Shown piece by piece: positions 18,250 to 30,885 of a stretch of 64,000 nt of DNA; the first letter of the stretch is position 1, and every line of letters starts with the position of its first letter. The notes below the pieces were generated by a model. That model was not told the DNA's origin, made no database searches, and worked only from the letters and a program-made list of their open reading frames with translations. The position numbers were made by a program, and so were the translations under genes. Source of the stretch: a virus (Duplodnaviria; Heunggongvirae; Uroviricota; Caudoviricetes); the IMG/VR virus record IMGVR_UViG_2861079508_000001. One strand, given 5' to 3'.

Positions 18250-20613
18250 TCAAATATCGAAGCTCGTTATGTCGGCATTTATTGCCATTGCTTCGGCATA
18301 AGTGCGACGCTCACCATCAGCACAAAGTAGGCGTGCTGCTTTATGGATTTTTCTCGTAGAACCATCATCCAGTGACACTGTCACCCAGCCTTCCTCCGCT
18401 CGCTTAATGAAGTCGCCGCCAATGGATTTCATTTTCTCCATATCTTTTTTCCCGATCGCTTTCCTGACCGAGTCTGCTTCCGCCATTGAGAACCCCGCCA
18501 AGATTCGCGTAGCAGCCATGATCTGTTCCTGATAAATCAGAACTCCGTTTGTGTCGCGAGAGATGTCGTCCAGCATTGGGTGTAAGGAATGTGGGGCCAT
18601 GAAGCCTTTGGCCACGGACACATAATCGTCCAACATGCCGGATTGAATCGGGCCAGGTCGGAAGAGCGCAGTTGTAGCGACGACCGTTTTAAAGCTCATT
18701 GGCTCAATTCCACCACCTAAATCTTTAAGCAGCTTGCGCATTGGGCCTGATTCAAGCTGGAATACGCCCTGTGTATACCCTGCAGCAAAACCATCCAGCA
18801 CCTTGCGATCTTCAAGAGAAATGGCATCAAGATTGATATCTTCACCTGTGTTCTCTTTTATGTAGCGTTTTGCACTATCGAGCAAATCGAGAGTTGCCAG
18901 GCCAAGCACGTCCAGCTTAATTAGGCCCATAGCCTCGCAGTAACGCTTGTCAAATGCGATACAACGCGCGTCACCACGGCGTTCAACCGGTGTACGTTCT
19001 GTCAGAGGAACACCTGCTACGATCATCCCTGCCGCATGTCTACCAAAGCCACGCATAAGGCTTTGTAACTTGCAGGCTGCATTGAATGCATCAGGATATT
19101 TTGTTGCGTATTTGTCGAGACTTGCCAGTTGTTCGCGCAGCTCTTCCAATGGAAGGCTATCATCCTCGACGTTCTTCAGTTCTTTTGATACCGCCATATC
19201 TGCGGACTCCACACCATAAATACGAGCGGTGTCACGTAGTGCAGAGGCTGCGCCCAGGTAGGTGAAGTTCGGAATGCCTGCAACGTAATCTTCGCCGTAG
19301 CGTTCATTCAGATACTCGATCACCTCATGGCGACGTGCCTGGCTGAAGTCCAAGTCCGCATCCGGCAAGTCGAGACGCTCAGGGTTGATGAAACGCTCAA
19401 ACAGAAGACCGTGACGGATTGGGTCGACGTTGGTTATGCCTATGCACCACGCCACCAGAGAACCGGCAGAGGAACCACGACCAGGCCCGACAGGAATGCC
19501 AGTTTCACGGCTGTGATTCATCAGATCGCGTACCATCAGGAAGTAACCACAAAATCCCAGGCGAGTAAGCGTGTCCATTTCGTACTTAAGTCGCTCAACA
19601 TAAACCCTGTTCTCAGAAGCAGGTGGTGTGTATCCAAACTCTTTTGTGGTAAGACGTTTACGCAGCCCTGCAACAGCCAGTTTCATCAGCGTTGCAGGTT
19701 CGTCGTCTGCCATCTTGGGCAGTGCTGGTGGCAATTCATGCCAGCGCCATGTGCAGGCATCGATAATGGAGTCCTGCGTTGTTGAGGCCATTGCAGCTGT
19801 TACCGGCACATCCATGCGAACGGAGAAGGCTTTAAGCGCCTCAAGGAGATGGCGACGACCATTGATGGCGTTATCTCGCTGGTGGGGGATACGCAGACGA
19901 TGCGGCTGGTCGATTTTTATGTTGTTCGTAACCATGTGCGCAATGTCTTTAATGTCTGCATCGTCGATCGATTCGTAATAAGCGGGATAGAACGCTACTG
20001 GCTCTATTTTCAGTGCGCTGGCGACTTTCATCGCCCGGACGTTAATCTGGTCGTAGAATGGGGTAGGGTGCGGATAAACCACACTATAGAAGTTGTCTTT
20101 TCCACCCGCTGTAATCAGTGTGCTTATGATTTTTGCAAAATCGTTGCGTTGGAACACGCTACCGATGTCGGAAGTAAGCAGGATGATGTTGCCTTTGGCA
20201 TATGTAGAAACCAACTGTTCGAGCGAGAGACGCGGTACAAAGTAGAACTGTTCTCGTGTGTTGGCCGCCGTCATTAGTTCGCAGATGTCGCGATATCCTT
20301 TCTCATTTTTAATTAGAGCGGTAAACGAGTAGTTACGTCCTCGCTCTAATGATTCCATACATCTCATAGATTCTTTAGCAAGTTTAGCCCGGTGCTCGTA
20401 TGTGGGATCATCAACAATGTTTAGTTTCACACCACAAATAACCGCCATGTCGTCACCAGCGGCACGTTGTAGTGGAATAACGCTCGCAATATTCATGCTA
20501 TCTGCTGAAATTACAGCGGTGTAGCCAGCTTCTCTGGCAATCTTCACCGCGTTTTCTGCTTTTAGAGCCGACTCCCCAAGTGAGAAGTCAGTTCGAACCA
20601 TCAGTGCCTTCAT
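18250..20613 (-). CDS. dnaE: DNA polymerase III alpha (DnaE) N-terminal fragment (PHP domain plus polymerase core)
   Basis: 787 aa; GRGSSAGSLVAWCIGITNVDPIRHGLLFERFINPERLDLPDADLDF and FQLES...LFRPGP...YQEQIM match the DnaE core; last ~45 aa have no DnaE counterpart. Confidence 0.85.
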   Translation of the reverse strand: MKALMVRTDFSLGESALKAENAVKIAREAGYTAVISADSMNIASVIPLQRAAGDDMAVICGVKLNIVDDPTYEHRAKLAKESMRCMESLERGRNYSFTALIKNEKGYRDICELMTAANTREQFYFVPRLSLEQLVSTYAKGNIILLTSDIGSVFQRNDFAKIISTLITAGGKDNFYSVVYPHPTPFYDQINVRAMKVASALKIEPVAFYPAYYESIDDADIKDIAHMVTNNIKIDQPHRLRIPHQRDNAINGRRHLLEALKAFSVRMDVPVTAAMASTTQDSIIDACTWRWHELPPALPKMADDEPATLMKLAVAGLRKRLTTKEFGYTPPASENRVYVERLKYEMDTLTRLGFCGYFLMVRDLMNHSRETGIPVGPGRGSSAGSLVAWCIGITNVDPIRHGLLFERFINPERLDLPDADLDFSQARRHEVIEYLNERYGEDYVAGIPNFTYLGAASALRDTARIYGVESADMAVSKELKNVEDDSLPLEELREQLASLDKYATKYPDAFNAACKLQSLMRGFGRHAAGMIVAGVPLTERTPVERRGDARCIAFDKRYCEAMGLIKLDVLGLATLDLLDSAKRYIKENTGEDINLDAISLEDRKVLDGFAAGYTQGVFQLESGPMRKLLKDLGGGIEPMSFKTVVATTALFRPGPIQSGMLDDYVSVAKGFMAPHSLHPMLDDISRDTNGVLIYQEQIMAATRILAGFSMAEADSVRKAIGKKDMEKMKSIGGDFIKRAEEGWVTVSLDDGSTRKIHKAARLLCADGERRTYAEAMAINADITSFDI

Positions 20614-22124: not shown

Positions 22125-24233
22125 TCACTTTAAAATGATACGAGATAGTTCAGTAACTACAGATGAACCAAGACTATCAACGCTCGTTACCAGGGCATGA
22201 TTTGAGTAAAATCTCTCCGGTGCGTCAGTCATGATGCCAATTGCCATCAAATCAATATCAGTCTGCGTTTCAATTTGCTTCGCAACTGAACGCAAATGAG
22301 CGTCAAAACCTCTCCCAACAGCCCACGGCGCGCCATCACTCAGAACAAGCATGATCTTCCTGTCCTCCATGCGACCGGAAAATAACGATGCAAGGCTGGC
22401 TATGCTTTCACCATCCACGTTATTAAGAAGTGGGAATGTGTAGCCTACGCACCCCATACGTGAGCGAACTTCGCGAGAATTTACCTTTTCATTCCAATTT
22501 TTGATGATAGGTAGCATTAAAGATTCAAAGCGAGAGAACTCATACTTGACAGCCTTAAGTTCTCCTGCCGCCATATGACTACCAAATGTAGTGAAGCCGG
22601 TGATAATGTTGGGAACATTTATTCGATCAAGGGCATCGGCGATGGTATATGCACTTGCAAGAGCCAGTTTAATCGTTATACCACTCATTGAACCTGATAA
22701 ATCAATCACTTGTTGAACACAGGCGTTAACGGCTTTAGATTCTTCTTTTTTACGAAACACGCGAGCATCATTCATTGCTAATCTGTAGATACTAGAACCA
22801 TGAATGCGCCCCCGACGCTGGCCCGGTATAAACTGAACTCTGTTTCTGCTTGCTATTGCTCGCTCCAGGTCTTTTGCCAGCGTCGACGAAACACCTGACG
22901 AAAGATGCTTTTCAATATATTTGTCGAAGAGCTGGTTGCCTTCAGGAACGATGCGATAGCGGCTGATTGGATATCCTCCCAAATCAATATCGGAGAATGT
23001 TTTAATAAGCCGTTTGATATGGGCTTCTGCCTGATCAATCGAGCCGATGAAGTCGTATGAGCGATTGTATGGCCTGTATTCGCTTTTCGAGCTTTCTGTT
23101 AACTCGCTTTTAATCGTTTCGGATAGAGCATCTTCTGTCATGCCTCCGACTTCATCTTCTATGCTATCCAGCTCCTCTAAAGCCTCTTCCAGACTCATTT
23201 TTGACGGAGTTGGGATATCTGAAGAGCCATCTTCTGTCGTTTTTCTTTTTTCGTGGTCAGCGGTTAATGATTCTGACGCCGCGTTATCAGAAGCATCAGA
23301 ATCTGATACCTCTTTATCATTTTCTGTATCATCGAATATTGTTTCTGATGATTCAGAATTATCTGAATCATCACTGTCGCTATTATCATGTTTGTACTTA
23401 CTATGTGATTCTGATTTGATAGATTTGTGATTATCTAACACTGAGGGTGTCTCATGATCTTCGTTGTCTTCATTGTTTTCTCCAGAGGCATCCGTCTGGT
23501 CAGCGTCTGAAGGATCGGAAGTTTTTCCCGGAGCTGACTCCTTACCTTTGCTTTCACTTTCAGTGTCTTTGAGGATCTTAGCTATGGTCGCAGCCACCTT
23601 TACACAATCCTCGGTGCAAGACATGTTACGCACGGCCACATCGATACCATGTTCTTTTAATAATGAAATTGGTTTCTCAATGACAGGCCAATGTTCATCC
23701 ATGAAATCTACGAACGGTGCTTGGCCATCCCAGGCTCTTACAACCGGACAGAGAAAGAAGTTTAGAAAAAGCGCGCGCTGATCTTTGCCACAATAAGCAA
23801 TAGCCTCTGAAGCCTTTGGTTTAAAGACTTTTTCGATTATAAGGCGCTGAGTTGCCATCAGATTACGTCTTGTTCCGTTAAAGACCTGACCCATTTTTCG
23901 CTCGATGAACACGTCTTCTAAGGCATTCCATAGCGACCAGGAAGGAACGCGTCCTTTTTCTCTCATTTTGTTGGACACACGAATATCGGTAAACAAAATG
24001 TGAGCAACCTCATGATCGAGAAATCCGCGCACAGCATTCATCAATGCCGGTGTTGCGTTATCCGGGATTGATGGGATGTTTACGAAAATTGGCTCTCCAT
24101 CATCGTTATAGCGTACATAAGCGTCGTCCCCTCGTTCTGCAACAGGGATGTTTTTACCTGAAAGGAGAGCGACTACTCGTTTTACACTGTCACGGAAGTC
24201 CTGAACCTCTTTGATGGAACGTTTTTTAGACAT
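22125..24233 (-). CDS. CobT-like von Willebrand factor A domain protein
   Basis: 702 aa; VWA/MIDAS-like IDLSGSMSG; long acidic Ser/Asp-rich linker. Confidence 0.65.
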   Translation of the reverse strand: MSKKRSIKEVQDFRDSVKRVVALLSGKNIPVAERGDDAYVRYNDDGEPIFVNIPSIPDNATPALMNAVRGFLDHEVAHILFTDIRVSNKMREKGRVPSWSLWNALEDVFIERKMGQVFNGTRRNLMATQRLIIEKVFKPKASEAIAYCGKDQRALFLNFFLCPVVRAWDGQAPFVDFMDEHWPVIEKPISLLKEHGIDVAVRNMSCTEDCVKVAATIAKILKDTESESKGKESAPGKTSDPSDADQTDASGENNEDNEDHETPSVLDNHKSIKSESHSKYKHDNSDSDDSDNSESSETIFDDTENDKEVSDSDASDNAASESLTADHEKRKTTEDGSSDIPTPSKMSLEEALEELDSIEDEVGGMTEDALSETIKSELTESSKSEYRPYNRSYDFIGSIDQAEAHIKRLIKTFSDIDLGGYPISRYRIVPEGNQLFDKYIEKHLSSGVSSTLAKDLERAIASRNRVQFIPGQRRGRIHGSSIYRLAMNDARVFRKKEESKAVNACVQQVIDLSGSMSGITIKLALASAYTIADALDRINVPNIITGFTTFGSHMAAGELKAVKYEFSRFESLMLPIIKNWNEKVNSREVRSRMGCVGYTFPLLNNVDGESIASLASLFSGRMEDRKIMLVLSDGAPWAVGRGFDAHLRSVAKQIETQTDIDLMAIGIMTDAPERFYSNHALVTSVDSLGSSVVTELSRIILK

Positions 24234-24795: not shown

Positions 24796-25182
24796 ATGTC
24801 TGACAACAAGATTGAATTTATAGAAAGTCGCTATGCTGCTTTTATCGCAGGGCTGATTGAATCCTCACCTATGAGTCAGGCCCAAATAGCCAGACTTATT
24901 GGTTATAAAAATGCCAACAACCTTTCTTTAATTAAAAGTGGCAAAATTCCTTTGCCTATCGATAAGGTTCGTCCGTTGGCGCTGGCGCTGGGTATTGAGC
25001 CAAGTCGTCTTATGATGATGGTGCTGGAAGAACGCCAACCTGAACTCGCAGCATTTTTATACAAAGAAGGCACCGCTCCTCTTAACGAGGACGAAAAACA
25101 GGTTCTTGCTGCATATAACGAGCGATTCGGTAAAGAGAAAGGCGCATCACAAAAGGTTGTTGAGGCCATAAAGTCTCTATGA
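24796..25182 (+). CDS. helix-turn-helix (XRE-like) transcriptional regulator
   Basis: 128 aa; SQAQIARLIGYKNANNLSLIKSGK helix-turn-helix; AT-rich 250-bp upstream region. Confidence 0.55.
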   Translation: MSDNKIEFIESRYAAFIAGLIESSPMSQAQIARLIGYKNANNLSLIKSGKIPLPIDKVRPLALALGIEPSRLMMMVLEERQPELAAFLYKEGTAPLNEDEKQVLAAYNERFGKEKGASQKVVEAIKSL

Positions 25183-26280
25183 AAAATTTACACGAATAAG
25201 CTCTGTTGATAGACGATCTCCCTTGAATTTGTGGTCAATTTCGTCTAAATCCGGTTGCTCTACGATTGATGCGATGTACGTCGAGAAACTTTCTAAGGCG
25301 TCTCGCATCTCGTCCATATAATCGTGCCGGTCGTAGACTCGATCTATCCCCTCAAGACTGTGGTTCATGATTTTGCGTGATACCTCCTGGCTTATGCCTA
25401 ATGCTGGGAAGTAACTACGCGCAGTGCGGCGCAAGTCTCGGGGTGTAAATGGCTCAAGCTCCATCAGTTCTGGTCGTTCCAGAATACGACGTAATGCCTG
25501 GGCTATTGCCACTTTAGACATAGGAAGGTCTTTCCCGATTTTTTTATTCGAAGGCACGAGCCACTGGCTGCCTTTACCGTATTCGAACAACTCTTCAATG
25601 CATGTGCGCATTAATGAGCTTAAAGGCAGAGAATGCTCACGGGCAGATTTGTTCCTCTTGCCTTGATTCCAAACCCCACGCTTAAGATTGAACTCACTTT
25701 TTTTAGCCCGCAGTACTTCGTCAGGTCGTCTTGCGGATACAAGACATAGCCTGGCCGCCCATTTTGTACCAGCACACACATTGAAGTAGTCCCATATATT
25801 CCAGAACACCCATACCTCTGCGTCGGTTAGCTTCCGCTCGCGAGGTGTGGGCTTTGCGCCACCGGCAACTTTGTTAAGTGACATATCGTTTAACGGTGAC
25901 ACGTCGATCATCCCCTGGAAGGCGCACCAGCTGAGGAACTGCTTCATCAGAGAGAAAACGCGGCGACCCATAACAATTTTGCCATCCAGTATTAGTGGGT
26001 TGACCAGTTGGTTCACCATGAACCTATTAATATCACTTACTTTTACATCGGCAATGTGCGGCAAAACATGTATCAAAATACAATGAACAGCGATCTCTGG
26101 CCGACGTCTTGTTATCAGCAGAGATAAGCGAGTGAATAACATGAATGCGTCCGAGAATCTCATGTCATTGCTGACCTGGGAGATCATAACGGCCTGCATT
26201 TGAGATGCTCTTTCGAGATACTCAATCGCCTCTTTTGAGGTGTTCTCCGCAGCGCGTGCTCTGTCAAAGCTATTTTTCAT
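25177..26280 (-). CDS. tyrosine recombinase / integrase (lambda Int-like catalytic domain)
   Basis: 367 aa; C-terminal TPRDLRRTARS and NHSLEGIDRVYDRHDY (box II, His, Tyr nucleophile). Confidence 0.7.
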   Translation of the reverse strand: MKNSFDRARAAENTSKEAIEYLERASQMQAVMISQVSNDMRFSDAFMLFTRLSLLITRRRPEIAVHCILIHVLPHIADVKVSDINRFMVNQLVNPLILDGKIVMGRRVFSLMKQFLSWCAFQGMIDVSPLNDMSLNKVAGGAKPTPRERKLTDAEVWVFWNIWDYFNVCAGTKWAARLCLVSARRPDEVLRAKKSEFNLKRGVWNQGKRNKSAREHSLPLSSLMRTCIEELFEYGKGSQWLVPSNKKIGKDLPMSKVAIAQALRRILERPELMELEPFTPRDLRRTARSYFPALGISQEVSRKIMNHSLEGIDRVYDRHDYMDEMRDALESFSTYIASIVEQPDLDEIDHKFKGDRLSTELIRVNFS

Positions 26281-26530
26281 ATGACAATCACCGAGTTACG
26301 CCGATGCACTGTATAAGTAAACAGTATATTAGGCATAGATTCTTATAGGATCAAGAGTAAAAGTAACTCATTTTCAGTAATGATTCCATACATAGTAGGT
26401 ATGGAATCATTGTAGGCCTTTTTTATAAAATCTGTGATTCTTCTCAGGATAAATTATCTAAACTAAAAATTGTGTTTTGTGTTGGCATCTGCTTGAATAG
26501 ACGCATGTTTATTCAGATATGGAATAATCA

Positions 26531-27067
26531 GTGAACAACCAAATTCATTGGGACTACCCATTCTCAGAAGAATTCGGCAGTGGGATGGTACACAGACAAT
26601 TCACTGTGGGAAGCACTATTTATGCCGTTGGGTTTGAACAAATATTGACGATGGATGATTTCACACGTAAGGGAGTTGATATCCTAAATGTACATCCAAC
26701 ATTCCGGTTTCCTCTGAGTGGTGTATGGGGAGTGATTTTTGACGAAATTGACCCTGTAGAAATGGATTTCAAAGGATTTCGGCATATCCAACATCAAGGC
26801 TTGGCAGGTGGTCAAGTGCTTTTGAATGTTGCAAGTATAATCTTTGACCATTATACTGTTTGTAACGCAGGAGCTTATGTCTTCTCCGCCGCAGACGACC
26901 ATCAGCATTTACGCAGAACTGACTTGGTAGACATTTACTGTAAGATACTAGGTCTAAATGGAAAACGTAAAAGTAGATTGTTCGCCAATGGTTTTCCTGG
27001 ATGGGAGGCATACTGTGATGTACCAACAGGAGGAAGAGGCTATGTCGTCACGACTGAAAGTTATTAA
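26531..27067 (+). CDS. hypothetical protein (178 aa, GTG start)
   Basis: plus-strand ORF in a minus-strand backbone; overlaps next small gene by 26 bp. Confidence 0.35.
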   Translation: MNNQIHWDYPFSEEFGSGMVHRQFTVGSTIYAVGFEQILTMDDFTRKGVDILNVHPTFRFPLSGVWGVIFDEIDPVEMDFKGFRHIQHQGLAGGQVLLNVASIIFDHYTVCNAGAYVFSAADDHQHLRRTDLVDIYCKILGLNGKRKSRLFANGFPGWEAYCDVPTGGRGYVVTTESY

Positions 27068-27269
27068 TTATTACCCCACCTCTGCAGAACGTTTGAGCCT
27101 TGAAATGGGCGAAAGACTACAGAAAGCTGCTGGTCAGGATTTAAAGAACAAGTTGGGTTCAGGGGAAATTAAACTGATTAACGGTAAATATGTAGGTGAA
27201 AGCCTGAAAGTTAATAGCACCTCTATGCTAAAAGCGCGGTTGCGTAAAGCGTATATCCCCGCTAAATGA
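27042..27269 (+). CDS. small hypothetical protein (75 aa, MSSRLKVINYYPT...)
   Basis: strong ribosome-binding site AGGAGGAAGAGG before ATG 27042; ends at an intrinsic terminator; track shows a longer ORF from 26958. Confidence 0.45.
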   Translation: MSSRLKVINYYPTSAERLSLEMGERLQKAAGQDLKNKLGSGEIKLINGKYVGESLKVNSTSMLKARLRKAYIPAK

Positions 27270-27298
27270 AAAGGCCTATATGGGCCTTTTCATTTTTA
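27270..27298. terminator. bidirectional intrinsic terminator (AAAGGCC-tatat-GGGCCTTTT plus T-run)
   Basis: read directly between convergent genes ending at 27269 and 27296. Confidence 0.6.
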
Positions 27299-27541
27299 TA
27301 GTGTACTCACCAGCGCCGCAAATTCCGTATACCCCCCAATATGCTCTCCATGTATGAATATCTGAGGTATGGTATCCACTGGTTTACCAACCTGGTTGCT
27401 CAACGTTTCTTTGTTGATCCCCGCAGATGTAATATCTATATACTCATAATCACCGTAGCCATGTCCCTTTAGTTGCTTCGCCAACTCGACCGCACGTTTG
27501 CAGTATGAGCAGTTATCTCGTCCGTAGATAGTGATCGTCAT
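27296..27541 (-). CDS. glutaredoxin-like protein (NrdC/GrxA-type)
   Basis: 81 aa; CSYC active site near N-terminus; thioredoxin-fold size. Confidence 0.7.
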   Translation of the reverse strand: MTITIYGRDNCSYCKRAVELAKQLKGHGYGDYEYIDITSAGINKETLSNQVGKPVDTIPQIFIHGEHIGGYTEFAALVSTL

Positions 27542-27714: not shown

Positions 27715-28623
27715 ATGATTGGTAAGTTGTCTGATTCTTTGATTGAAAATAAATACAACGAATTTAGAGAAGAAATATCTTTACTTTTTGACTATTTAAA
27801 TCAGATAAATGATACAACAAAGAAAAATATAAAACGTCTTCTTAAAGAAGTGGAGTATGCACAAAATCCAGATACTATTATTAATATTAATGAAACTATT
27901 AAGATTAAGTGTGGCACAACGTTAGCTCGCCATTTATGTTCAAACCCATATACAGGTTCAACATTAGAGATAGGTAACAGCGCCATTGATTTAGAAGAAA
28001 AGATAAGATTGTGTAATACTTTGAAAAATAAACAATATCAGTGGGTTATTACTGAAGCCTATGAGTTACTGGAAGACTATATTGAGGCAATATATGTCTA
28101 TACTGTATGTGTTCGAAATGATTTATGGTCCTCAAGTGATTTTGGTAAGGTTGAAGATGATGAAATTGGGAAAAGGGAAGTTTATTACAGATTATTAAAA
28201 GCAAAAAGTAACCCATCGAAAAAAATAACTAAAATTTTCAGAAATAAAATACCTGGCTTCAAAGAGATAGAAACAAACAACAAGATTGGCAAAAACTATC
28301 GCTTTAACATCAAGCTAATTGAACTACTAAGACATACAATAGTACACAATAGTGGACGATTCAATGATACAGAAAAATTTATAAATAAGGTTTTAGATGA
28401 ATCTGAAATAAACGGTAAGAAAAGAGTTATTGGAGAAAGAGCTGTTAGAAGTTACATTACTAAAGTGCAAGAAGATGATATTGTGATGCTCTTAGAAAGA
28501 CCATCTGAAATTTTAGGTTCTTTTGGTGGGTATTTTAACAGAGCAAAATTTTTACTAAGTGATATTTTAGAATACTCACTAATCATTAAAGAAGAACTAA
28601 AATCATATCTAGGCAATCATTAA
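27715..28623 (+). CDS. AT-rich orphan protein with HEPN-like Rx4H motif; candidate Abi-like defence/anti-defence
   Basis: 302 aa; coding region visibly AT-rich versus flanks; motif LLRHTIVHNSGRF (R-x4-H); own upstream motif and own terminator; function is inference. Confidence 0.5.
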   Translation: MIGKLSDSLIENKYNEFREEISLLFDYLNQINDTTKKNIKRLLKEVEYAQNPDTIININETIKIKCGTTLARHLCSNPYTGSTLEIGNSAIDLEEKIRLCNTLKNKQYQWVITEAYELLEDYIEAIYVYTVCVRNDLWSSSDFGKVEDDEIGKREVYYRLLKAKSNPSKKITKIFRNKIPGFKEIETNNKIGKNYRFNIKLIELLRHTIVHNSGRFNDTEKFINKVLDESEINGKKRVIGERAVRSYITKVQEDDIVMLLERPSEILGSFGGYFNRAKFLLSDILEYSLIIKEELKSYLGNH

Positions 28624-28801: not shown

Positions 28802-28888
28802 TGGCGGAGAGTAATGGAATCGAACCATCATCGCTTGCGCAATGGGACGGTTTTCAAGACCGCTTGAGCACCATGCTCCCTACTCTCC
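28802..28888 (-). tRNA. tRNA-Ser (anticodon UGA), class II long variable arm
   Basis: folded by hand from the reverse complement: acceptor GGAGAGT/ACTCTCC, anticodon loop CTTGAAA, T-loop TTCGATT, 3' CCA. Confidence 0.8.
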
Positions 28889-28987
28889 AGCTATTGTGAT
28901 GGTCGGTGCTGAACTCCGACACAGGGTTGTAGCAAGCCCCGCAAAGCGCGCACTACTGTAGTTGCGGCACATCAGCCTGTGCATTCA

Positions 28988-29070
28988 TCACAACGGTAAG
29001 ATCACTACCTTTCGACCAGTCATTGTGCACATGAACGACGATTAACCGTAATGATCTTATCGTTGTGTTG
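28988..29070. repeat. long hairpin H1 (arms CACAACGGTAAGATCA / TGATCTTATCGTTGTG)
   Basis: inverted repeat read directly between tRNA-Ser and tRNA-Thr. Confidence 0.5.
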
Positions 29071-29115
29071 TGAAGCCAGATGCTTATCTTCTGGTTGCTT
29101 CAAAGAGCTGCACTT

Positions 29116-29208
29116 CCTCACAACGGTAAGAGCACTGGTCTGACTCTATCGATTTACGGCCTTGTGGGTCAGTATCGCCGATTCGCCCAATGCTCTTACC
29201 TGTTGTGT
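29116..29208. repeat. long hairpin H2 (arms CACAACGGTAAGAGCA / TGCTCTTACCTGTTGTG), paralogue of H1
   Basis: inverted repeat read directly; ends at tRNA-Thr. Confidence 0.5.
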
Positions 29209-29284
29209 TGGTGCCGGTTAACGGACTTGAACCGCTGGCCATTCGCTTACAAAGCGACTGCTCTACCAACTGAGCTAAACCGGC
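29209..29284 (-). tRNA. tRNA-Thr (anticodon UGU)
   Basis: hand fold: acceptor GCCGGTT/AACCGGC, D-arm GCTCAGTTGGTAGAGC, anticodon loop TTTGTAA, T-loop TTCAAGT, CCA. Confidence 0.8.
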
Positions 29285-29288
29285 AATT

Positions 29289-29375
29289 TGGTGGGGAGTG
29301 ATGGAGTCGAACCACCCGAGTCGCCATGACAGTAGATTTACAGTCTACACCGCTACCTCTACGGACTAACTCCCC
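29289..29375 (-). tRNA. tRNA-Tyr (anticodon GUA), class II
   Basis: hand fold: anticodon arm CAGACTGTAAATCTG-like (GACTGTAAATC), long variable arm, T-loop TTCGACT, CCA. Confidence 0.85.
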
Positions 29376-29380
29376 TAAAT

Positions 29381-29455
29381 TGGCGATGGTGGGTGGATTC
29401 GAACCACCGACCAGTTGGTTAACAGCCAACTGCTCTACCGCTGAGCTACACCATC
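29381..29455 (-). tRNA. tRNA-Asn (anticodon GUU)
   Basis: hand fold: perfect 7-bp acceptor GATGGTG/CACCATC, anticodon loop CTGTTAA, T-loop TTCGAAT, CCA. Confidence 0.85.
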
Positions 29456-29717
29456 AATTCAGCACTGCCAGTATTTATTACTCAACAGTGCCAATCGCGA
29501 CGGTTTAGTTTCTGCCAGGAAACGCACCGCTACTTGCACTTTTCGTTAGTGCCAGACGCTTTCGACTTCGCTCAATAGTAGAAGGCAAAATCTTTAAGTA
29601 GATGATGTTTCTGAGGACAGCACCTACTTTGTAATTTATACAATGTGATGTATGGAATCATTTGTTGTGAAAACAGGCACCAATGGCAACAGTGGTTAAA
29701 CCTACACAACAATCCCG

Positions 29718-30524: not shown

Positions 30525-30669
30525 TTTCTCACCTTTGTTTCATGAACTACCCGATACACACGCTTTCCGATGCACAGTGTTTTGGTTTTAAGTTCCTGCT
30601 TAATTAAGTCACGACAGATGCCGAAGCCGATAAGGAAGCCACCCATAAAAGCTAATGAGATGTATGGAA

Positions 30670-30885
30670 TCATTTTAACACTCCTGATTCTACTAATTGC
30701 TGTAGCAATACTTTCCCTTTATCAGTTAACTGGTAGTTGGCCGAACACTTCGTTTCAGAAACGTTTGCAACCAACCCTAAACGCTCTAACTTAGCTCGCG
30801 TTTTAGGCTTCCAGTACTCAGGGAACTCCGGCCACTTACTGATTTCATGAAGCGTTTCCTTCTCCCGTTTACTTAATACGATCAT
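30670..30885 (-). CDS. hypothetical protein (71 aa)
   Basis: ORF only. Confidence 0.35.
   Translation of the reverse strand: MIVLSKREKETLHEISKWPEFPEYWKPKTRAKLERLGLVANVSETKCSANYQLTDKGKVLLQQLVESGVLK

Follow-up and report, generated by a model that had tools for sequence, protein, structure and literature searches.

A mobile two-gene cassette encoding a truncated GNAT-like protein in a phage-plasmid cargo slot: a possible reverse-order toxin-antitoxin module

A pair of small overlapping genes carried by an Escherichia coli phage-plasmid, analysed here within a 64,000-nucleotide stretch of DNA (the window), is a self-contained, horizontally mobile accessory cassette. The upstream gene, ORF1, belongs to a sequence-orphan family whose predicted structure is a truncated GNAT-like alpha/beta core. 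The pair is tentatively read as a reverse-order type II-like module, with ORF1 as the putative effector and the downstream gene, ORF2, as the putative neutraliser; this is a plausible reading that may well prove wrong, and the evidence on both sides of it is set out below.

ORF1 (26531..27067, plus strand) encodes an acidic protein of 178 aa (pI 5.7) from a GTG start with a weak ribosome-binding site, and ORF2 (27042..27269, plus strand) encodes a strongly basic protein of 75 aa (pI 10.1) from an ATG start. In the list of open reading frames the ORF2 frame is entered as a 103-aa ORF (26958..27269), with the conserved start being the ATG at 27042, which gives the 75-aa product. The sequence GGAGGAAGAGGCT lies directly 5' of this ATG, which places the Shine-Dalgarno GGAGG at 27029..27033 on the plus strand with a spacer of 8 nt; it is encoded by Gly-Gly(-Arg) codons of ORF1. 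The two genes share 26 dual-coding nucleotides (27042..27067, plus strand), where the end of ORF1, YVVTTESY and its stop codon, lies over the ORF2 residues MSSRLKVIN, implying that translation of the two ORFs is coupled. Both starts are backed by comparison, as homologues share the first residue of ORF1 (MNN.I.W...) and of ORF2 (MS(S/L)). The pair keeps this junction in over 15 Enterobacterales lineages: the GGAGG-N7-8-ATG arrangement is kept in every lineage examined, and even the distant types B and C retain the GGAGG. Most lineages have the 26-nt overlap, which extends to 29-53 nt in those with a longer ORF1 C terminus. RefSeq places both ORFs at identical coordinates as the hypothetical proteins WP_077818713.1 and WP_032328855.1, accessions for which no literature mention was found.

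The pair lies between a recombinase gene (25177-26280; Pfam Phage_integrase, 4e-10) and a glutaredoxin gene (27296-27541; Pfam Glutaredoxin, 4e-11), both on the minus strand. It ends at a bidirectional intrinsic terminator (27264..27295) that also serves the convergent glutaredoxin gene; this terminator bounds the cassette on the right. This hairpin has 16-nt arms with 94% complementarity and a U-run 3' of it on both strands, and folds at −21.8 kcal/mol on the plus strand (z = −6.2) and −18.6 kcal/mol on the minus strand (z = −5.1). An earlier note on this DNA had described a 178-aa ORF overlapped by a 75-aa ORF with a strong ribosome-binding site, running opposite to the backbone and ending at a bidirectional terminator, and this anatomy is now established in each of its parts. 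The note had also recognised no family for either protein, and searches of Pfam, PHROGs, NCBIfam and PADLOC agree, returning no match for either even at E ≤ 1-10.

A candidate sigma-70 promoter (26470..26498, plus strand) precedes ORF1, consisting of a −35 hexamer TTGTGT at 26470-26475, a 17-nt spacer, and a −10 hexamer TTGAAT at 26493-26498 preceded by TGC, with a predicted transcription start near 26505. Of 15 loci drawn from unrelated contexts, 12 have the TTGAAT hexamer ~32-40 nt 5' of the ORF1 start, and TGn usually precedes it; the variants are TTCAAT in two loci and ATGAAT in L047. A TTGT(G/T)(T/A) hexamer is located 17 nt 5' of the −10 in the loci checked (the window and L009). From these alignments the candidate promoter appears to be conserved and to travel with the cassette. 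The ORF1 start codon is GTG in 11 of the 15 loci. A further, internal promoter is possible at 26829-26857.

Breakpoints derived from relatives delimit a cargo segment of 884 bp (26412..27295, plus strand) that comprises the promoter, ORF1, ORF2 and terminator, with a GC content of 40.6% against 46.2% for the window. On the left, Cyrano, PhiR41_1 and two CMS-2020a records cease to be homologous to the backbone at 26411/26412; the right edge, at 27295/27296, was obtained by comparison with CMS-2020a L029. The DNA of this segment has no matching phage record in INPHARED. Measured against a Citrobacter element, synonymous divergence reaches 0.33-0.45 in the cassette genes and 0.76-1.76 in the flanking genes, which shows that the cassette has moved between phage-plasmid lineages.

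The slot occupied by the cassette lies between an integrase-side palindrome and the glutaredoxin gene, and its contents differ among related phage-plasmids: some have fimbrial genes there, others an esterase, a YafO toxin module or further genes. The YafO-family toxin, preceded by a partner gene, is the cargo of CMS-2020a (E. coli) and pJN2-26 (Klebsiella). The 184-aa protein found in the slot in Cyrano was considered as a divergent ORF1 and rejected (BLASTP E = 1.4). No description of the slot was found in the phage-plasmid surveys checked. The palindrome (26379..26411), which marks the left edge of this variable slot, has 13-nt arms and a 7-nt spacer, AATGATTCCATAC-ATAGTAG-GTATGGAATCATT; it is part of the phage-plasmid backbone and lies outside the cassette proper. 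It is present in all relatives, with identical arms and a variable spacer, and related palindromes with co-varying arms are located 5' of the cassette in Yersinia and Pluralibacter chromosomes. A plain intrinsic terminator is an unlikely identity for it, given an AT-rich stem, a T-run that starts 5-9 nt past the stem, invariant arms around a varying loop, and the lack of any upstream plus-strand gene to terminate. It may be a recombination site for the 367-aa integrase or an operator, for which a 128-aa HTH protein is a candidate binder; single copies lie at 20348, 29650 and 30662. As a separate observation, the backbone ends exactly at this conserved palindrome, the cargo beyond it differs among relatives, and the cassette was transferred later than its flanks.

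The accessory position proposed in the earlier note is borne out by synteny comparison. The pair has 28 representatives among 1.84 billion proteins; of 5426 complete E. coli genomes 3 carry it, and an ORF1 relative occurs in only 33 of the 932 PLSDB plasmids that carry this integrase family. In Dickeya, Yersinia, Erwinia, Serratia, Pluralibacter and Enterobacter it forms isolated two-gene islets between unrelated core genes, for example adjoining nrdAB in Pluralibacter, and isolated islets of the cassette are known from more than 10 unrelated contexts. The cassette also adjoins IS elements, and some plasmids have it in their maintenance region together with VapBC, ParA and a recombinase; Mrr_cat and Shedu SduA_C are occasional neighbours. 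Serratia species keep the pair stably and in synteny on the chromosome, located between queE and queD. A link to queuosine synthesis was rejected: queE and queD are absent from every other context, so that this locus is read as an insertion between two convergent core genes. A link to the canonical GNAT gene found upstream in Dickeya and at a second Serratia locus was likewise rejected; the two GNATs have no mutual BLAST similarity, and as they are unrelated to each other the association is probably due to chance.

The ORF1 family comprises 43 protein clusters and is under purifying selection (dN/dS about 0.1). Conserved residues include F70-D71, H85, H107-Y108, Y136 and G168-R169-x-Y171. The AF2 model of ORF1 is confident (pLDDT 84, pTM 0.83) and places it in the GNAT-like fold class; Foldseek searches of the PDB gave weak matches headed by AtaT, TacT and KacT. 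Judging from the order of secondary-structure elements in this model, ORF1 appears to lack the N-terminal alpha1-alpha2 arm. Thirty-five members submitted singly to Pfam at E ≤ 10 produced no match to an Acetyltransf family, and profile searches of PDB sequences, run with three alignments, returned nothing meaningful. The acetyl-CoA pyrophosphate loop Q/R-x-x-G-x-G/A that precedes helix alpha3 is not conserved across the family: only type A keeps G90 and G94, and neither types B and C nor other distant members retain them. The best Foldseek matches also include internal domains of large phage proteins in BFVD, of putative identity, and these large proteins also hold deaminase, Zeta-toxin, ParB or ART domains. 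A tblastn search of all phage records with ORF1 and one distant homologue gave only noise.

The ORF2 family comprises 49 clusters, all of them short stand-alone proteins; ORF2 is very basic (pI about 10-11) and has a dN/dS of 0.05-0.2. Members of the family share a conserved N-terminal core of ~52 aa, composed of a long helix and a beta-hairpin with the motif KL-x-(S/T)-G-E...(N/D)-G-(R/K), followed by a variable basic tail. The low-confidence AF2 model (pLDDT 67) places the helix at 14-40 and the hairpin at 43-52. No DNA-binding or antitoxin domain was matched in Pfam or PDB sequences, even at E ≤ 10. A ribbon-helix-helix (RHH) fold, which consists of an N-terminal strand and two helices, was considered but is unsupported: there is no profile signal and the AF2 model shows one continuous helix. 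The partner is replaced in distant members of the family: type B ORF1 proteins (30-34% identity) occupy the same slot in ~22 Klebsiella and Salmonella plasmids with an overlapping partner for which hhalign detects no relationship to ORF2 (E = 0.15), and the type C partner is a 184-aa protein that has only the ORF2 N-terminal core in common, at its N terminus. Conservation extends to both ORFs and not to one alone, with purifying selection acting on each (dN/dS 0.05-0.2); the locus is not a core gene, and the predicted ORF1 fold does not preclude a toxin role.

The earlier note had suggested a toxin-antitoxin or small defence module. For the former, two generic type II features are present: a pair of co-oriented small overlapping genes with one conserved candidate promoter and one terminator, and a patchy, horizontally mobile spread on mobile elements and in chromosomal islets, a rare and uneven distribution that is typical of such modules. 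The YafO module in the same slot, the change of partners and the GNAT-like fold point the same way, as does the pattern of decay. ORF1 is destroyed and ORF2 left intact in three cases, namely in E. mori by IS truncation, in S. plymuthica by a frameshift, and in L038/L039 by an N-terminal deletion, and no locus was found with an intact ORF1 but without ORF2. The weight of this asymmetry is reduced because two of the three cases are 5' truncations, which would spare the downstream gene anyway. Against the toxin-antitoxin reading, neither protein matches a known family of such systems in Pfam or PADLOC, and ORF1 fails the sequence criteria of GNAT toxins; an acidic upstream and a basic downstream protein would have the opposite roles by the commonest convention, and the stable, syntenic residency in Serratia also fits an ordinary cellular function. 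The defence suggestion fared less well, having in its favour the occasional Mrr_cat and Shedu SduA_C neighbours and against it the lack of any PADLOC match.

Under the toxin-antitoxin model, both genes would be driven by the single conserved promoter. ORF1 would be the effector, an acidic, stripped-down GNAT-like core without the usual N-terminal helices, in which D71, H85, H107-Y108, Y136 and R169-x-Y171 are conserved. ORF2 would be its cognate neutraliser, with the conserved N-terminal helix-hairpin binding ORF1 and the variable basic tail possibly serving in nucleic-acid binding or as a degron. ORF1 would be poorly translated from its GTG and weak ribosome-binding site, and ORF2 well translated from its ATG and the GGAGG inside the end of ORF1; the neutraliser is proposed to be in excess because of this difference between the two starts. 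Post-segregational killing by the module would give the plasmid prophage its stability, and infections might be aborted as well. The analysis shows that the genes are real, how the operon is built, that it is accessory and mobile, the fold class of ORF1, the asymmetric decay and the change of partners; toxicity, neutralisation, physical interaction, and any enzymatic activity together with its target are inferred.

Among known systems, HigBA, HicAB and MqsRA are reverse-order type II modules, in which the toxin is encoded upstream and the antitoxin downstream with independent strong translation signals, and their antitoxins carry HTH or RHH DNA-binding domains. The cassette resembles them in its proposed upstream toxin and in the strong translation signals of ORF2, but has no homology to these toxins or antitoxins, and neither HTH nor RHH is detectable in ORF2. 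In the GNAT/RHH systems (TacA-TacT, AtaR-AtaT, KacA-KacT, ItaR-ItaT and GmvA-GmvT) the gene order is the reverse of that seen here, where the GNAT-like gene comes first. ORF1 also differs in matching no Acetyltransf Pfam family at any threshold, in lacking a conserved Q/R-x-x-G-x-G/A loop, in being acidic, and in the apparent loss of the alpha1-alpha2 arm from its AF2 model, and its partner is downstream and gives no RHH or DUF1778 signal; on these grounds the locus is not a member of those families. The YafO modules of CMS-2020a and pJN2-26 are also two-gene cassettes and share the slot in sister phage-plasmids, suggesting that the slot takes addiction-type cargo, but their proteins are unrelated, they lie on the opposite strand, and a partner of 202-205 aa precedes the toxin.

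Several other readings were weighed. The roles may be reversed, with the small basic ORF2 acting as the toxin, for instance by binding nucleic acid or an enzyme, and the acidic GNAT-like ORF1 acting as an antitoxin that sequesters or modifies it; this is improbable. YjhQ is acetyltransferase-like. The E. coli TopAI (YjhX)/YjhQ pair provides the parallel, as its 181-residue protein neutralises an 85-residue toxin (PMC4666372). The likeness lies in the pairing of a ~180-residue with a ~80-residue protein, and the system demonstrates that the larger protein can be the neutraliser; however, the small toxin gene yjhX comes first there, opposite to the order here, and Pfam searches give neither ORF any similarity to either component, with ORF2 matching neither YjhX_toxin nor any other family. 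The threefold loss of ORF1 with ORF2 intact also runs in the wrong direction, pointing to ORF1 rather than ORF2 as the harmful partner, unless a 5' truncation silences ORF2 as well. Stronger translation signals on ORF2 would be unusual for a toxin, and it is the partner that is the more variable and replaceable component, as antitoxins usually are. At the far end of the scale, the proposal that one or both ORFs are chance frames in an intergenic spacer has as its only point the absence of family annotation, and it is refuted by the 43 and 49 clusters, the selection on both genes, the junction kept in every lineage and the confident ORF1 model, so that it can for practical purposes be dismissed.

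A stronger contender, though still rather unlikely, is that the cassette is conflict cargo with no addiction role. ORF1 would then act as an effector enzyme with relatives among the domains of the polyvalent proteins that phages inject, and ORF2 as its regulator or adaptor, providing anti-phage defence for the lysogen or counter-defence for the phage-plasmid. In phage and plasmid polyvalent proteins, GNAT domains adjoin ART domains (Iyer et al. 2017, PMC5512222), and the ORF1 Foldseek matches to internal domains of large phage proteins, whose identity is putative, are reminiscent of these. Unlike such domains, ORF1 stands alone, is mostly chromosomal or plasmid-borne, and has no sequence link to them; the BFVD targets are themselves uncharacterised. 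Further, neither ORF matches PADLOC (E ≤ 1), ORF1 and the cassette DNA are absent from 50,697 phage records, and most chromosomal copies lie between housekeeping genes and outside defence islands. There is also a slim chance that ORF1 is an ordinary acyltransferase-like enzyme acting on a small molecule or protein, with ORF2 as a small accessory or regulatory subunit, the pair being a moron that confers a physiological trait, for example the detoxification or modification of a metabolite, and has no toxic or conflict role. Against this, the acetyl-CoA-binding glycines are not conserved, the upstream-GNAT association is probably fortuitous, no metabolic neighbour is consistent across the more than 10 contexts, and metabolic enzymes do not typically have an obligatory overlap with a small basic partner that evolves fast and can be replaced.

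Clinical E. coli, Klebsiella and Salmonella commonly carry phage-plasmids of this group, whose integrase family is represented by the 932 PLSDB plasmids, and the stabilisation and cargo of this group are poorly described. The palindrome and its slot may bear on how phage-plasmids gain accessory genes. It is conceivable, if doubtful, that two broader proposals hold together: that ORF1 founds a new effector family, with a minimal GNAT-derived fold without the canonical acetyl-CoA loop, common to Enterobacterales mini-cassettes and phage polyvalent-protein domains and checked by interchangeable small partners, and that the cassette is repeatedly delivered into one slot of SSU5-like phage-plasmids via the integrase-side palindrome, so that the slot would capture cargo site-specifically, much as an integron or dif module does. 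If ORF1 is related to the domains of injected polyvalent proteins, it would make an uncharacterised conflict domain available as a small and tractable protein that stands alone. As an addiction module, the pair would represent a new family of toxins and antitoxins in which the effector is a divergent GNAT-like protein, the gene order is reversed and partners can be exchanged, and it would account for some of the persistence of these elements.

Two overlapping plus-strand reading frames lie between the integrase gene (25177-26280) and the glutaredoxin gene (27296-27541), both on the minus strand. ORF1 (26531-27067) encodes 178 aa from a GTG start, and ORF2 (27042-27269) encodes 75 aa from an ATG at 27042; the frames overlap by 26 nt, and a GGAGG is present upstream of the ORF2 start at 27029-27033 (plus strand). 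The earlier note had described this overlapping pair, its strong ribosome-binding site, its orientation against the backbone and a bidirectional terminator at its end. The coordinates, the GGAGG and the RefSeq annotation, which carries the same two CDSs as hypothetical proteins, bear out the pair, and the strand of both flanking genes agrees with the orientation. The terminator corresponds to a hairpin at 27264-27295 that is strong on both strands (-21.8 and -18.6 kcal/mol, z-scores -6.2 and -5.1). Both ORFs are real genes. Homologues of ORF1 form 43 clusters at 90% identity and those of ORF2 form 49, every one a stand-alone protein of 59-100 aa; the ORF1 family is nonetheless small, as only 28 members turned up when 1.84 billion representatives were searched exhaustively with a profile. 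Every locus with an intact ORF1 has ORF2 starting at the same place, in more than 15 distinct lineages that include phage-plasmids of E. coli, Citrobacter, Salmonella and K. oxytoca, other loci in Dickeya, Yersinia, Erwinia, Pluralibacter, Enterobacter, Serratia and Pantoea, and metagenome contigs. At this junction the GGAGG is supplied by Gly-Gly-Arg codons of ORF1, and the ORF2 ATG falls within ...G-Y-V-V-T-T.... Outside the overlap, dN/dS (Nei-Gojobori) is 0.09-0.12 for ORF1 and 0.05-0.21 for ORF2; the homologous clusters, shared junction and low dN/dS of both genes speak against conservation of one ORF only.

The interval 26400-27300 has a 100% identical counterpart in the 112 kb E. coli plasmid CP057685.1 and counterparts of 99.6-99.9% identity in six further E. 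coli plasmids, 108-113 kb in size; all of these plasmids are non-mobilizable. Around this interval, the backbone is matched at 95-98% by Escherichia phages CMS-2020a, Cyrano and PhiR41_1, and at about 74% by Klebsiella phage-plasmids, pJN2-26 among them. Phage genes, size, IncFIB typing and non-mobilizable status were found as well. Because of these plasmid and phage backbone matches we take the window to be a phage-plasmid, presumably of the SSU5/pHCM2 type. Elsewhere in the window, a CobT/vWA-like protein of 702 aa (22125-24233, minus strand) carries a long acidic Ser/Asp/Glu-rich low-complexity insert at roughly residues 225-380. Just past the glutaredoxin gene lies a 302-aa ORF (27715-28623, plus strand) whose sole match is phrog_35492, of unknown function (E = 3e-211). 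CMS-2020a SCU-107 has this ORF and Cyrano lacks it, and it looks like a second accessory insertion. It adjoins a cluster of four minus-strand tRNA genes (28802-29455; Ser-tga, Thr-tgt, Tyr-gta, Asn-gtt), a set that differs among relatives, since only Ser, Thr and Asn are annotated in Cyrano.

The pair belongs to a sharply bounded accessory cargo segment. Cyrano, PhiR41_1 and the two CMS-2020a records all cease to be homologous at 26411/26412, where 26411 is the final base of a palindrome, and CMS-2020a homology restarts at 27296, the glutaredoxin stop codon. The cargo is therefore 26412-27295 (884 bp), with a GC content of 40.6% vs 46.2% for the window. The same slot in relatives holds a 637-aa SASA-esterase protein, a colicin-E1-immunity-like protein, an AraC regulator with a fimbrial usher (PhiR41_1) or an unrelated 184-aa protein (Cyrano). 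In E. coli phage CMS-2020a (L029, 3455-4483) and Klebsiella phage pJN2-26 (L032, 5875-6912) it holds a YafO-family toxin of 136 aa (Pfam 5e-22); the partner encoded upstream of this toxin (202-205 aa) lacks a family assignment and may represent an undescribed type of YafO antitoxin. Among 932 PLSDB plasmids with the integrase family, 33 carry an ORF1 relative; the cassette was present in three of 5426 complete E. coli genomes, plasmid-borne each time, and in none of the INPHARED phage records. Outside phage-plasmids the pair forms an isolated islet at a different site in each genus: between a GNAT gene and a sigma-54 activator gene in Dickeya, between a Sua5-like gene and a LysR gene in Erwinia, in a prophage-like region with an Mrr_cat gene in Yersinia aldovae, near nrdAB in Pluralibacter, near nik genes in Enterobacter, downstream of a type I secretion operon in an Enterobacterales contig (L015), and, elsewhere, adjoining IS elements. 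In Serratia it lies between convergent queE and queD (L028 7305-9094; also L027 and L018), with a second, distant copy adjoining a PAT-like GNAT gene and DUF808, and in Pantoea-type plasmid maintenance regions it accompanies VapBC, a tyrosine recombinase and ParA. Together with the varied slot contents, this synteny supports the accessory position proposed in the earlier note, and the patchy distribution is not that of a conserved core gene. Synonymous divergence from the Citrobacter phage-plasmid is 0.45 for ORF1 and 0.33 for ORF2, lower than for the flanking glutaredoxin (0.76), integrase (1.42) and HTH (1.76) genes or a 70-aa gene (saturated), and therefore the cassette entered the slot after the backbones of the two lineages had split.

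The palindrome at the left edge (26379-26411; AATGATTCCATAC-N7-GTATGGAATCATT; arms of 13 nt, spacer of 7 nt) is located 100 nt upstream of where the integrase gene starts. It was compared among the window, L001, L003-L005, L029-L032, L009 and L024; no sister phage-plasmid differs in the arms, while the spacer varies and is inverted in PhiR41_1. Variable cargo begins at the right arm, as backbone homology ends exactly there. Related palindromes with symmetric arm changes are located upstream of the cassette in the Yersinia aldovae and Pluralibacter chromosomes, with no integrase nearby. Exact single arm copies occur at 20348-20360 (plus strand), 29650-29662 and 30662-30674 (both minus strand), where none is expected by chance, and all three extend to AATGATTCCATACAT; at 30674 the arm coincides with the AGGAG-ATG start of a small hydrophobic ORF (MIPYISLAFMGGFLIGFG...). 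Arm matches with up to two mismatches number seven in the window vs two expected, a count reached by no shuffle. By analogy with the C1 operators of P1, the single copies suggest that operators of a phage-plasmid regulator are scattered along the sequence. Based on arm identity, the cargo edge, the chromosomal palindromes and the single copies, the palindrome may serve as operator to a DNA-binding protein of the phage-plasmid, may be the core site of the recombinase (a lox-like or dif-like site being a candidate), or may be both.

Cassette copies share a predicted promoter (-35 TTGT(G/T)(T/A), 17-nt spacer, TGn-TTGAAT) about 32-40 nt upstream of the ORF1 start, at 26470-26498 (plus strand) in the window. 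ORF1 starts with GTG in most lineages and has a weak ribosome-binding site in the window, whereas ORF2 has an ATG with GGAGG upstream. A degenerate palindrome arm (AGATATGGAATAAT, 86% identical) at 26515-26528, directly upstream of the ORF1 GTG, overlaps this weak site; it may tie ORF1 expression to any protein that binds the palindrome or be due to chance. Within ORF1, a promoter-like site (26829-26857, plus strand; TTGCAA-17-TATACT, 9/12 matches) lies 185 nt upstream of ORF2 and could serve ORF2 alone, as in some reverse-order toxin-antitoxin (TA) operons; its conservation tells little, as it overlaps the conserved VASIIFDHYTV coding motif.

Neither protein matches a known family, as the earlier note had it: searches of Pfam, PHROGs, NCBIfam, PADLOC and PDB sequences were empty even with profiles or at E <= 10. 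The AF2 model of ORF1 is good (pLDDT 84, pTM 0.83), with the order beta-beta-alpha-alpha-beta-alpha-beta-alpha-alpha-beta-beta. Foldseek found nothing significant in the PDB (best AtaT, E = 0.037, then many AtaT, TacT, KacT and 7byy chains) and better matches in BFVD (E from 1e-4, probability about 1.0, TM up to 0.54-0.60) to uncharacterised phage proteins and to domains inside large phage proteins that bear deaminase, Zeta-toxin, ParB or ART annotations; these matches recall polyvalent-protein GNAT domains (PMC5512222). We infer from the model a truncated GNAT-like core (beta2-beta3, insertion, beta4-alpha3-beta5-alpha4-beta6-beta7) that would lack the N-terminal alpha1-alpha2 arm. Across the wide family, F24, F70-D71, H85, V100, H107-Y108, A120-A121, L132, Y136, G141 and Y171 are conserved; the putative acetyl-CoA loop glycines G90 and G94 are kept only in the close family. 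With no family match and these glycines so restricted, ORF1 does not qualify as a GNAT toxin by sequence or motif, and the predicted fold resemblance stands as a lead. The ORF2 model is of low confidence (pLDDT 67; helix 14-40, hairpin 43-52, basic tail), and its conserved core is about the first 52 residues, with the motif KL-x-(S/T)-G-E-...-(N/D)-G-(R/K). In nearly all lineages ORF1 is acidic (pI about 5-6) and ORF2 strongly basic (about 10-11).

ORF1 is lost with ORF2 intact in E. mori (IS truncation), in the S. plymuthica type strain NBRC 102599 (frameshift at the queE-queD site) and in the L038/L039 loci (N-terminus missing). An IS cut ORF1 in L036/L037 and ORF2 was removed too; an intact ORF1 without ORF2 was found in none of the loci examined. 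Type B relatives of ORF1 (30-34% identity) occupy the same slot in about 22 Klebsiella and Salmonella SSU5-like phage-plasmids (e.g., L051 2899-3757 and L052 2950-3694), with an overlapping partner of 76-97 aa at the same G-R-x-x-Y/ATG junction; no similarity between this partner and ORF2 could be detected (hhalign E = 0.15), so the slot has been filled repeatedly by different versions of the module. A type C ORF1 is paired with a 184-aa protein that matches the ORF2 profile over its first 50 residues (E = 4e-5), in a locus adjoining Shedu SduA_C, VapBC and ParA. Taken together, the decay asymmetry, partner replacement, translation signals and YafO in sister slots tentatively favor a reverse-order type II-like module, in which the upstream ORF1 would be a harmful effector and the downstream ORF2 its neutraliser.

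Several observations weigh against such an assignment: it has weak support from structure, its proposed effector ORF1 is an acidic protein, no DNA-binding domain is recognisable in ORF2, synteny of the pair is stable among the species of Serratia, and the decay asymmetry comprises three cases. The roles could be reversed, with ORF2 harmful and ORF1 neutralising, for which TopAI/YjhQ is a precedent (PMC4666372); with the decay pattern as it is, we regard this as quite improbable. A similarly small chance is given to an ordinary enzyme, acyltransferase-like and accompanied by a small subunit. A defence or counter-defence effector pair is unlikely, though less so, and the module matches no known defence family. 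For the module with ORF1 as effector, the known systems most alike in working would be the GNAT-toxin TA systems, of which it is not a member, as sequence, motif, antitoxin type and gene order all fail. YafO, which occupies the same slot in sister elements, is a bona fide TA toxin family. The cassette is rated as TA-like and built from two unannotated families.
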